From Saccharolobus solfataricus (lineage in GTDB: Archaea > Thermoproteota > Thermoprotei_A > Sulfolobales > Sulfolobaceae): a DNA stretch of 32,000 nucleotides. Where the stretch lies: assembly GCF_900079115.1 (NCBI RefSeq), contig NZ_LT549890.1:660001-692000 (forward strand). Direction: 5' to 3'. Both the position numbers and the translations under genes were made by a program. The notes beneath the pieces are model-generated. The model searched no databases, was not told where the DNA came from, and worked only from the letters and a program-made list of their open reading frames with translations. Below, piece by piece: positions 377-26,123 of this stretch. How positions within the stretch are numbered: the stretch's first letter is position 1; the number at the start of each line of letters is the position of its first letter.

Positions 377-484
377 CGCCGGGGACGGGATTCGAACCCG
401 TGTGCCTCAGAGAGGCAGTAGGTCCCTCGCAGTAACGCTGGAAAGGTCTCGAGCCTACCCCCTTGACCGCTCGGGCACCCCGGC
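377..484 (-). tRNA. tRNA-Ser(CGA) with an intron of about 24 nt in the anticodon loop
   Basis: Hand-folded reverse complement: acceptor GCCGGGG/CCCCGGC, discriminator G, anticodon stem GTAGG/CCTAC, loop CUCGAG..A. The loop is interrupted after position 37 by ACCTTTCCAGCGTTACTGCGAGGG. Long variable arm GCCTC/GAGGC and T-arm GGGTTCGAATCCC. Confidence 0.85.
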
Positions 485-6267: not shown

Positions 6268-6524
<257 letters not shown>

Positions 6525-6876: not shown

Positions 6877-7104
6877 ATGCCCAGGCCAGGTTATAAGTCG
6901 GTCTACTTCCCAGATGAGGAGCTATGGAAGAAAATAGTGGATGAGGCAGAAAAAAGGAAAGTAAGTGTATATGAGGTGTTAAAAGACGCTTTCAATTGCT
7001 ATATAAGGGAAAAGGAAGGGAATAAGGTAAGTATGGAGGAAATAGTAAAAGAGCTCCAGGAATTGAAGAAGAGGGTTGAGGAACTGGAAAAGAAAGTTAA
7101 ATAG
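6877..7104 (+). CDS. ribbon-helix-helix (CopG/ORF56-like) DNA-binding protein with C-terminal coiled coil
   Basis: 75 aa. The N-terminal pattern KSVYFPDEELWKKIVDEAEKRKVSVYEVLKDAFNCYIRE fits an RHH fold (beta strand plus two helices). EELEKKVK heptads at the C-terminus. TATA-like TTTATATT about 30 nt upstream. Confidence 0.6.
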   Translation: MPRPGYKSVYFPDEELWKKIVDEAEKRKVSVYEVLKDAFNCYIREKEGNKVSMEEIVKELQELKKRVEELEKKVK

Positions 7105-7199
7105 AATTTTTTATTGATAAACTGGGGAGTTAACTAATCTTCTTATTCAAATAATAATTCTATAGGGATACTAACTTAGTATAAATAAAAACAGAAAGA

Positions 7200-7207
7200 T
7201 TTTCAAA
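7200..7207 (+). promoter_or_regulatory. TATA-like box of C/D sRNA copy A
   Basis: TTTTCAAA is centred about 27 nt upstream of the first G of the sRNA stem. The equivalent TTTTTAAA sits at the same distance in copy B. Confidence 0.4.
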
Positions 7208-7230
7208 TCCCAAAAAATAAGAACTAAATT

Positions 7231-7302
7231 GGGGAGCGGGGAAATGATGAGGGTTCCAGAGCTGAAGCGTGATGAATGGTTGACACGCTGACCCCGCTCC
7301 CC
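7231..7302 (+). ncRNA. C/D box sRNA (2'-O-methylation guide type), copy A, closed by an 11-bp stem
   Basis: GGGGAGCGGGG-AA-ATGATGA(C)-GGGTTCCAGAG-CTGA(D')-AGC-GTGATGA(C')-ATGGTTGACACG-CTGA(D)-CCCCGCTCCCC. 44/72 G+C in AT-rich surroundings. No ORF. Confidence 0.75.
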
Positions 7303-7556: not shown

Positions 7557-7669
7557 AATCTCATATACCAATATTAAATGGTGAGAGTGTTGCAAAAATA
7601 TCCTTTGCTGTTGCAAATCTCTTATCTCTGTAGAGAACGTAATTTTCTTTCAAATTATCATAAAATTAG

Positions 7670-7759
7670 TGCCGCGGCCGGGATTTGAACCCGGGTCACG
7701 GGCTCGAGAGGCCCGCATTCTTTCGGTGCCTGCGCTTGACCGGGCTAAACCACCGCGGC
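7670..7759 (-). tRNA. tRNA-Glu(CTC) with an intron of about 17 nt at a non-canonical position (between D-arm and anticodon stem)
   Basis: Reverse complement GCCGCGG-TG-GTTT-AGCCCGGTC-AAGC-G-[CAGGCACCGAAAGAATG]-CGGGC-CTCTCGA-GCCCG-TGAC-CCGGGTTCAAATCCCGG-CCGCGGC-A. The 17 extra nt precede the anticodon stem. Confidence 0.7.
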
Positions 7760-24687: not shown

Positions 24688-25527
<840 letters not shown>

Positions 25528-25572
25528 AATGAGAAGAAAAAATTAATAACGGTTAAAGATAAGAGTAAATTA

Positions 25573-25644
25573 GGGGAAAGGGGTCAGCTCCCAAGCCGTT
25601 CATCCTGGCTCAGTTCTGGCGTGGCTCATCATTCCCCTTTCCCC
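25573..25644 (-). ncRNA. C/D box sRNA, copy B (paralogue of 7231-7302 with different guides)
   Basis: Minus strand: GGGGAAAGGGG-A-ATGATGA(C)-GCCACGCCAGAA-CTGA(D')-GCC-AGGATGA(C', one deviation)-ACGGCTTGGGAG-CTGA(D)-CCCCTTTCCCC. 44/72 G+C. Confidence 0.7.
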
Positions 25645-25667
25645 GTTTTCTAGTTTTGCAAAATAGG

Positions 25668-25675
25668 TTTAAAAA
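25668..25675 (-). promoter_or_regulatory. TATA-like box of C/D sRNA copy B
   Basis: TTTTTAAA on the minus strand, centred about 27 nt upstream of the stem, within a block conserved with copy A. Confidence 0.4.
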
Positions 25676-25733
25676 CTTTTCTGTTTTTATTTTTGTCCTT
25701 TTAATATCTCATTAGGAATAATATTTTAAAAGG

Positions 25734-26123
25734 TTATTTAACTTCCTTCTTCTCTACAACTATTATTAAGAAACTCATAGGGGGTAATTTAGAAGAGACG
25801 TAACAAGACACTTCTAAAGGTTCCTTAGCTCTAATTACGCTCTCTTTTATGAATTTTAAATGAAGATCAGACGACACTAATACTAAATACTTAGTACTAT
25901 CAGGAATAAAAAATCTAAAGAACTTTTCATAACTAGAAATTATTCTAGCGTTAATGAAATAAATAAAATTAATTTGCTCCCGATTTATAACCCTTAATAA
26001 ATCCTCATCAACATAAGTTTCTAGTTCTTTAGGGCTTAACGATTTCATATAGTATATATCATGTGTGAAGACATTTATTAAGTTTATTATAAATTCTTTA
26101 ATGGTGTAGTTCCATTGCTGCAA
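25734..26123 (-). CDS. hypothetical protein
   Basis: 129-aa ORF with no recognisable motif. A start at the internal ATG 26048 (MKSLSPKEL) would remove the overlap with the upstream gene. Confidence 0.4.
   Translation of the reverse strand: MQQWNYTIKEFIINLINVFTHDIYYMKSLSPKELETYVDEDLLRVINREQINFIYFINARIISSYEKFFRFFIPDSTKYLVLVSSDLHLKFIKESVIRAKEPLEVSCYVSSKLPPMSFLIIVVEKKEVK

Follow-up and report, generated by a model that had tools for sequence, protein, structure and literature searches.

In a 32,000-nucleotide (nt) stretch of the Saccharolobus solfataricus genome (contig NZ_LT549890.1, positions 660,001 to 692,000 of the forward strand; hereafter the window), we investigated the gene for a 72-nt box C/D small RNA (sRNA), encoded on the minus strand at window positions 25573-25644. 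We call it copy B, and a paralogous sRNA elsewhere in the window copy A; in strain P2, copy B is listed as Sso-14 or sR4. The best overall explanation of the locus, to which we assign a probability of about 0.6, is that copy B is a C/D methylation-guide sRNA of P2 that belongs to a plasmid cassette and whose D guide acts on C36 of tRNA-Gly(CCC).

A box C/D guide RNA listed in strain P2

Read on the minus strand, copy B has the order GGGGAAAGGGG-A-AUGAUGA-GCCACGCCAGAA-CUGA-GCC-AGGAUGA-ACGGCUUGGGAG-CUGA-CCCCUUUCCCC. The 5' strand of a closing helix (25634-25644) forms 11 base pairs (bp) with the 3' strand (25573-25583; CCCCTTTCCCC as DNA). Between the two lie box C (AUGAUGA, 25626-25632), a 12-nt D' guide (25614-25625), box D' (CUGA, 25610-25613), box C' (25600-25606), a 12-nt D guide (25588-25599; ACGGCTTGGGAG as DNA) and box D (CUGA, 25584-25587). 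Box C was recovered by both an Rfam model and a regular expression. Box C', which reads AGGAUGA and deviates from UGAUGA at one position (G for U), was also recovered by the Rfam model. The D'-to-C' loop is GCC, its 3 nt falling within the 3-9 nt expected of archaeal C/D sRNAs, and the other hallmarks of this class (boxes C, D', C' and D, two spacers of exactly 12 nt, and terminal pairing) are present as well. The G+C content is 44/72, and the 3' end lies 45 nt from the stop codon (25527) of Int(C), a convergent C-terminal integrase fragment. The original prediction, made from the DNA letters, had given the same length, composition, box order, guide and stem lengths, C' deviation and convergent spacing to Int(C), and the sequence, the fold and the coordinates bear these out.

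The folding energy of copy B is -31.5 kcal/mol (z = -3.7 relative to shuffled sequences), and both the minimum free energy and the centroid structure contain the 11-bp closing helix. A regular expression for the full architecture (C / 10-14 nt / D' / C' / 10-14 nt / D) matched exactly two loci in the window, copy B and copy A (7231-7302, plus strand), and none in 200 shuffles. Copy B had indeed been described as the second locus of this design, and the two also share part of their flanks. Against the generic archaeal C/D model snoPyro_CD (RF00095), copy B scored 41.5 bits (E = 2.8e-7; gathering score 45 bits). Its scores on sR3 (RF01133) and sR9 (RF01312) were 18 and 31.2 bits, both below gathering and with differing aligned guides. 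Copy B stays below the gathering score of every Rfam family, and no specific family fits. The generic C/D architecture is common to these three models and to copies A and B; since the matches rest on boxes and spacing while the guides do not correspond, they provide no evidence of orthology. We also rule out that copy A is Sulfolobus sR3, as its match to that family (41.5 bits) rests on the boxes. Similarly, copy B is not S. acidocaldarius sR4, because Sac-sR3 and Sac-sR4 share only boxes, and no guides, with the P2 copies; the name sR4 in P2 follows the S. solfataricus numbering.

With known archaeal box C/D sRNAs, including Sulfolobus sR1 and M. jannaschii sR8, copy B has in common the RUGAUGA/CUGA end boxes, C' and D' boxes in the interior, a pair of 12-nt guides and a kink-turn (k-turn) formed by the terminal helix. 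RNAs of this class are about 50-70 nt in size, and some (about 20%; PMC7994747) possess a TATA promoter of their own. Copy B has an unusually long closing helix of 11 bp (10-15 bp in its plasmid family), compared with 8 bp in M. jannaschii sR8, whereas Sac-sR3 and Sac-sR4 have essentially no closing helix. Another difference is that the gene of copy B is part of a cassette found on conjugative plasmids.

Over a 12,270-nt overlap, the window does not differ from the S. solfataricus P2 genome (AE006641.1), which also has the same order of genes around the neighbouring UPF0147 protein. P2 positions equal window positions plus 640,554, which places copy B at about P2 666,127-666,198, and the tRNA coordinates in Table S1 of PMC4500138 agree exactly with this mapping. 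The same table lists non-coding RNA (ncRNA) 27 at P2 666126-666185 (window 25572-25631), with the homologue 'Sso-14' and the group 'snoRNA SR4', at 112 fragments per kilobase per million (FPKM) in SmAP1 and 30 in SmAP2 pull-downs. As an expressed RNA is already listed here, the RNA itself is not new: copy B had been catalogued, the finding as originally stated was known, and the gene call adds nothing to the sRNA inventory. The ncRNA 27 entry stops at P2 666185, within box C, and leaves out the 5' strand of the closing helix (PMC4500138). This could reflect a truncated clone, or a mature 5' end other than the one in our helix model. The original prediction was to be given up if there were no transcript, or if the boxes were not conserved in related strains; a transcript is listed at the P2 locus (PMC4500138), and a second Saccharolobus genome and plasmid homologues have intact boxes.

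Upstream of copy B lies a conserved promoter module (25645-25725, minus strand) that is common to copy A and 13 plasmids. It contains an AAAAG resembling a transcription factor B recognition element (BRE) and the TATA element TTTTTAAA (together 25668-25680, minus strand), which end 24 nt before the first G of the stem. A BRE and TATA at this distance occupy their usual position in Sulfolobus promoters, and on the basis of this spacing copy B would be transcribed from its own promoter. On the other side of the gene is a conserved 3' flank (TAATTT...TTTTTTCTTCTCATT, 25535-25572, minus strand). By analogy with established archaeal C/D small ribonucleoproteins (sRNPs), the 11-bp helix would join boxes C and D in a k-turn, with C' and D' in a kink-loop, and the folded RNA would then assemble with L7Ae, Nop5 and fibrillarin. 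We infer this association from the sRNP analogy together with the 'snoRNA sR4' label. Boxes, spacing, helix, BRE/TATA and an independently listed transcript all agree with the C/D box guide RNA that had been predicted, and the locus is almost certainly a genuine and expressed archaeal box C/D guide RNA gene.

A gene cassette of conjugative plasmids

Together, promoter, sRNA and 3' flank form a cassette of about 190 nt. A blastn search with the 191-nt copy B cassette found homologues on Sulfolobaceae conjugative plasmids only (seven plasmids, 71-85% identity), and with the pARN3 cassette as the query the promoter module was found on 13 plasmids. The flanks of the copy B cassette are identical to those of the plasmids at fractions of 0.65-0.83. 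The conserved parts are ATTATTCCTAATGAGATA...AAATAAAAACAGAAA..TTTTTAAA upstream and TAATTT...TTCTTCTCATT downstream, both of which are present at copy B. Behind the promoter module, 11/13 plasmids have a C/D sRNA (pNOB8, pB12E5 with two copies, pSOG1/2, pYN01, pAH1, pHVE14, pARN3/4, pRT2 and CP152369), and on most plasmids carrying the cassette it lies directly downstream of a DUF1286 gene. The other two, pING1 and pKEF9, have kept the promoter module in a shortened form (~395-480) and lost the sRNA body, indicating that the sRNA is dispensable for these conjugative plasmids. A blastn search of the cassette against a phage collection gave no match, and a scan of IMG/VR for the cassette motif gave 34 matches, all of them due to chance. 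These searches rule out a viral cassette; it is plasmid-borne, and copy B is very probably of conjugative-plasmid origin.

Two of the plasmids show peculiarities of their own. On pING1, a RelE/ParE-type toxin gene follows the shortened promoter module. The sRNA of the pARN3 cassette (~1526-1610) has a C-to-D' spacer of 31 nt rather than 12 and a short terminal stem, making it an aberrant or differently built member of the family.

According to duplex predictions made for each sequence, all family members have G/C closing helices of 10-15 bp that differ in sequence, for example GGGGAAAGGGG/CCCCUUUCCCC, GGGGAGCGGGG/CCCCGCUCCCC, GAGGGACGGG/CCCGUCCCUC and GGGGAUGAGGGG/CCCCUCAUCCC. The helix is thus kept while the sequences of its strands differ, which points to compensatory changes, as judged from these individual predictions; a MAFFT alignment did not hold the helices in register for counting covariation. 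Between members, the cassette flanks are 65-93% identical and the guides mostly 17-58%. The first pB12E5 cassette and that of pYN01, for instance, have flanks identical at 0.82 and 0.93 and the same internal loop, with guides at only 0.42 and 0.33. That the guides are mostly near random beside conserved flanks indicates that they are exchanged, or diverge, far more quickly than the scaffold. One pair departs from this: the D guides of copy B and pHVE14 agree at 11/12 positions, although flank identity between the two cassettes is only 75-78% and D' guide identity 50%.

Complementarity to tRNA-Gly and competing explanations

Starting from box D, the D guide of copy B forms 11 contiguous pairs with nt 32-42 of tRNA-Gly(CCC), and only the distal 12th position is mismatched. 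The 3' part of this tRNA is carried by the attP of SSV2, a Sulfolobus spindle-shaped virus (SSV), as GCCGGC-CUCCCAA-GCCGG-UGAUC.... A metagenome scan also found full tRNA-Gly genes on AT-rich, Sulfolobales-like hot-spring contigs, with the arms CCGGC-CUCCCAA-GCCGG (CCC) and CCGGC-CUUCCAA-GCCGG (UCC). The likeness of the target string to the anticodon loop and 3' stem of tRNA-Gly(CCC), which had been put forward as an idea, therefore holds at the level of sequence, with 11/12 contiguous pairs to real genes and to the SSV2 attP. The guide:tRNA duplex is calculated at -23.1 kcal/mol, compared with -7.4 kcal/mol for the tRNA's own anticodon hairpin. For a panel of 20 tRNAs, shuffled guides reached at least 11 anchored pairs with P of about 7.5e-4 per guide. 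The D guide of pHVE14 (ACGGCUUGGAAG) differs from that of copy B only opposite wobble position 34, and matches tRNA-Gly(UCC), CUUCCAAGCCG(G/U). Only copy B and pHVE14 have such full matches, which rules out that the whole family targets tRNA-Gly.

In the proposed mechanism, the D guide would pair with nt 32-42 of tRNA-Gly(CCC), which span the anticodon loop and the 3' side of its stem, and direct fibrillarin to the ribose opposite guide position 5. By the N+5 rule, the predicted methylation falls on C36, the third base of the anticodon, and this predicted position is as atypical as the original prediction had expected. Archaeal C/D guides that target tRNAs include sR50 in the pre-tRNA-Trp intron (Cm34/Um39), the Pyrococcus position-34 guides and the Pyrobaculum single-guide tRNA sRNAs. 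Copy B differs from these in its N+5 site (36 rather than 34 or 39), in being plasmid-derived, and in having a sister cassette retargeted to another isoacceptor by one base. Archaeal sRNAs directed at tRNAs usually have one tRNA guide and one guide without a target (PMC7994747). The D' guide of copy B, for which we found no target, is probably an orphan.

Several points weigh against the overall explanation of the locus. The sequence of the P2 tRNA-Gly(CCC) is inferred from the SSV2 attP and the metagenomic Sulfolobales-like genes rather than read from P2. To our knowledge, C36 is not a known site of ribose methylation. Mass spectrometry failed to confirm comparable database predictions for the anticodon core, among them U35 of P. 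furiosus tRNA-Asp (PMC7668247). Most guides of the family are without any match and the D' guides without a partner, while the D guides of pARN4, pAH1 and pYN01, which have a box-proximal CU-NCC seed, match at only 7-8/12 positions. Copy B occurs at this locus in only two Saccharolobus genomes. The strand of ncRNA 27 is given as '+' in Table S1 of PMC4500138, whereas the boxes are on the minus strand. Finally, an rRNA target has been excluded in proxies only and not in P2's own rRNA. Given the pairing and these objections, that copy B functionally targets tRNA-Gly(CCC) for methylation is a tentative claim, which we place somewhat below even odds.

Three further observations concern tRNA-Gly and its attP copies. 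The tRNA-like strand of SSV2 is antisense to int, so the guide and the int mRNA are of one sense and no pairing between them is possible; this rules out that the guide derives from, or pairs with, the attP-bearing integrase mRNA. Eight AT-rich hot-spring metagenome contigs have tRNA-Gly loops that read CCCCCAA or CCUCCAA, with C replacing the near-universal U33. On a 2.6-kb contig (Ga0190354_1003809), three identical att-like fragments of the tRNA-Gly 3' half occur at 118, 1343 and 2507, about 1.2 kb apart, pointing to tandem or recurrent integration events at a tRNA-Gly site.

Copy B could instead be an expressed but orphan passenger, that is, a plasmid-derived sRNA that assembles into a ribonucleoprotein while its guides drift, the tRNA-Gly match being due to chance or a relic. 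The near-random guides beside conserved flanks, most of them without a detectable partner, fit such drift, as do the polymorphic D' guide and the atypical C36 site. By losing the sRNA and keeping the promoter, pING1 and pKEF9 also indicate that plasmids can replicate and transfer without the RNA, and orphan guides are common in archaea (PMC7994747). However, the null probability of an anchored 11-bp match is only about 1e-3 per guide. Drift also sits poorly with a D guide shared at 11/12 positions between copy B and pHVE14 despite the divergence of their flanks and D' guides, all the more as the one base that differs turns a Gly(CCC) match into a Gly(UCC) match. Boxes, helix and promoter have, moreover, been maintained across at least 11 plasmids. 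We therefore regard an orphan passenger as unlikely, though deserving appreciable weight.

An ordinary rRNA guide, with one or both guides targeting S. solfataricus 16S or 23S rRNA and a coincidental match to tRNA-Gly, is improbable. In its favour, most archaeal guides with predicted targets match rRNA (PMC4644070; PMC7994747), and P2's own rRNA (P2 871672-876400; table in PMC4500138) lies outside the scanned set. Within that set, neither guide has a box-proximal match in the aligned 16S and 23S rRNAs of seven archaea, including S. acidocaldarius, and there is no guide match in three other crenarchaeal rRNA operons. Among the crenarchaeal rRNAs, those of Thermocladium, of an Acidilobaceae metagenome-assembled genome and of an unidentified contig match no guide; as this includes the guides of copy A, these are weak proxies. 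Two rRNA contigs are from outside the Sulfolobaceae (79-83% 16S identity), and E. coli rRNA gave only partial guide matches at chance level. A strain-restricted gene in mobile-element debris would also be unexpected for a housekeeping guide, and the D' guide differs between two close strains.

We consider a non-methylating plasmid function (an antisense or regulatory RNA directed at mRNAs of the plasmid or host, an L7Ae decoy, or a non-catalytic RNA that binds the tRNA-Gly anticodon loop and so sequesters or shields it) very improbable: the conserved position beside DUF1286 on conjugative plasmids, the strong promoter of its own, the hypervariable guides expected of a host- or competitor-directed specificity element, the unlikely catalytic target C36 and a duplex far more stable than the tRNA hairpin would suit it, but nothing positive points to another target (the window contains no match to the guides other than their own gene), the 12-nt guides and intact C'/D' are exactly as in catalytically competent guides, and plasmids without the sRNA are still conjugative by PLSDB typing.

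Mobile-element surroundings and the spread of the cassette

Among ten Saccharolobus genomes, only P2 has the sRNA at this site, and the S. islandicus strains have either an empty site or other elements. One further genome carries it (GCA_040893065.2), with boxes and stem intact and a C-to-A change in the D' guide (window position 25621); sRNA and promoter differ from P2 by only two substitutions. Its presence in just these two Saccharolobus genomes indicates that the sRNA is dispensable. The D' guide variant of GCA_040893065.2 (GCCAAGCC) is complementary over 7 bp to the D guide of the same RNA (GGCUUGG). In this genome, indels set in from window position 25765 onwards, and the DUF4898 and DUF1286 proteins are 113 and 161 amino acids long, compared with 129 and 202 in P2.

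Next to copy B, a DUF1286 gene of conjugative-plasmid type (26098-26706, minus strand; PF06939) has 55-61% amino acid identity to plasmid copies. It is separated from the cassette in P2 by an open reading frame (ORF) with DUF4898 (25734-26123, minus strand), for which we found no plasmid homologue, whereas on most plasmids nothing intervenes. On the other side, convergent with the sRNA, Int(C) (24847-25527, plus strand; PF16795) is an SSV/pSSVi-type fragment, 73% identical to pSSVi and about 70% to SSVs. As Int(C) is of SSV/pSSVi type and the sRNA and DUF1286 gene of conjugative-plasmid type, a single integrated element is ruled out, and the neighbourhood is a mosaic of two mobile-element remnants. 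A plasmid fragment that has retained its plasmid-type DUF1286 gene would have brought copy B to the P2 chromosome. At a tRNA integration hot spot, this fragment would now adjoin the SSV-type remnant Int(C), to which it is unrelated. Immediately upstream of the integrase remnant (~24708-24755, minus strand) lies a tRNA 3'-half fragment (…GCC-UUCGGAG-CCGG…GGTTCAAATCCCGGCGGGTCCG), a tRNA-Arg(TCG)-like att core, and the same fragment is found in S. islandicus strains with other integrated elements at this site.

Copy A (7231-7302, plus strand), the paralogous 72-nt cassette sRNA, was identified by the regular expression, Rfam and alignment to copy B, and has different guides. Its promoter (~7186-7210, plus strand) is shared with copy B: the two have in common about 25 nt of promoter (AAATAAAAACAGAAA..TTTT.AAA) and the 3' flank (CCCC-TAATTT). 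The closest relative of copy A is the second cassette on pB12E5. Copy A lies amid mobile-element debris, with an N-terminal integrase fragment, Int(N), at tRNA-Val, an ORF resembling ribbon-helix-helix (RHH) proteins, and a tRNA-Glu 367 nt away. The integrase fragment is a 73-amino-acid ORF (~6303-6524, minus strand; PF07935, SSV1_ORF_D-335) that overlaps tRNA-Val (6268-6344) and is called in an identical S. solfataricus contig. Together with the small RHH-like ORF (~6990-7220, plus strand), it forms a second mobile-element remnant, around copy A.

Some tRNA genes of the window are themselves unusual. At 7669-7759 (minus strand), ARAGORN calls tRNA-Ser(CGA), but the Rfam-aligned arm CGGGC-CUCUCGA-GCCCG is that of tRNA-Glu(CUC); about 23 nt are inserted in its D-loop region. 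The 3' half of this tRNA-Glu near copy A is nearly identical to the tRNA-like attP of pNOB8 and pARN3. At 377-484 (minus strand), a tRNA with a 37-nt insertion after the anticodon arm scores 47.4 bits with Rfam and is missed by ARAGORN.

In the accessible plasmid papers, neither the guide sequences nor a C/D sRNA on a plasmid is mentioned, although an earlier description is not excluded. The plasmid cassette, the capture of two copies in the P2 chromosome and the anticodon-loop complementarity with its one-base retargeting, all deduced from sequence, appear to be undescribed in the literature we reached. The mobile snoRNA genes of mammals, the snoRNA retroposons (Weber 2006, cited in PMC7994747), likewise spread guide genes with diversifying guides. 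However, those spread by retroposition, while the P2 cassette is DNA on conjugative plasmids and is captured in the chromosome by integration and decay.

Beyond the sRNA inventory, what emerges is apparently one cassette on at least 11 plasmids and in two P2 mobile-element remnants, with a conserved scaffold, hypervariable guides and a one-base tRNA-Gly switch. Sulfolobaceae conjugative plasmids might thus carry a self-promoted C/D guide cassette with fast-changing guides, at least some of which (sR4/Sso-14 and pHVE14) would have the anticodon loops of tRNA-Gly isoacceptors of the host as their programmed targets; sR4 and copy A would then be captured cassettes. We offer this broader proposal as a speculative one that is rather unlikely to hold in full. 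If it is true, a mobile element would be using the host's fibrillarin machinery to have particular host tRNAs modified or masked. If the tRNA pairing of copy B is functional, a plasmid would be reprogramming host tRNA modification at the anticodon, archaeal genomes would have one route to gain new guide RNAs, and guide evolution could be tested by conjugation into a naive host.

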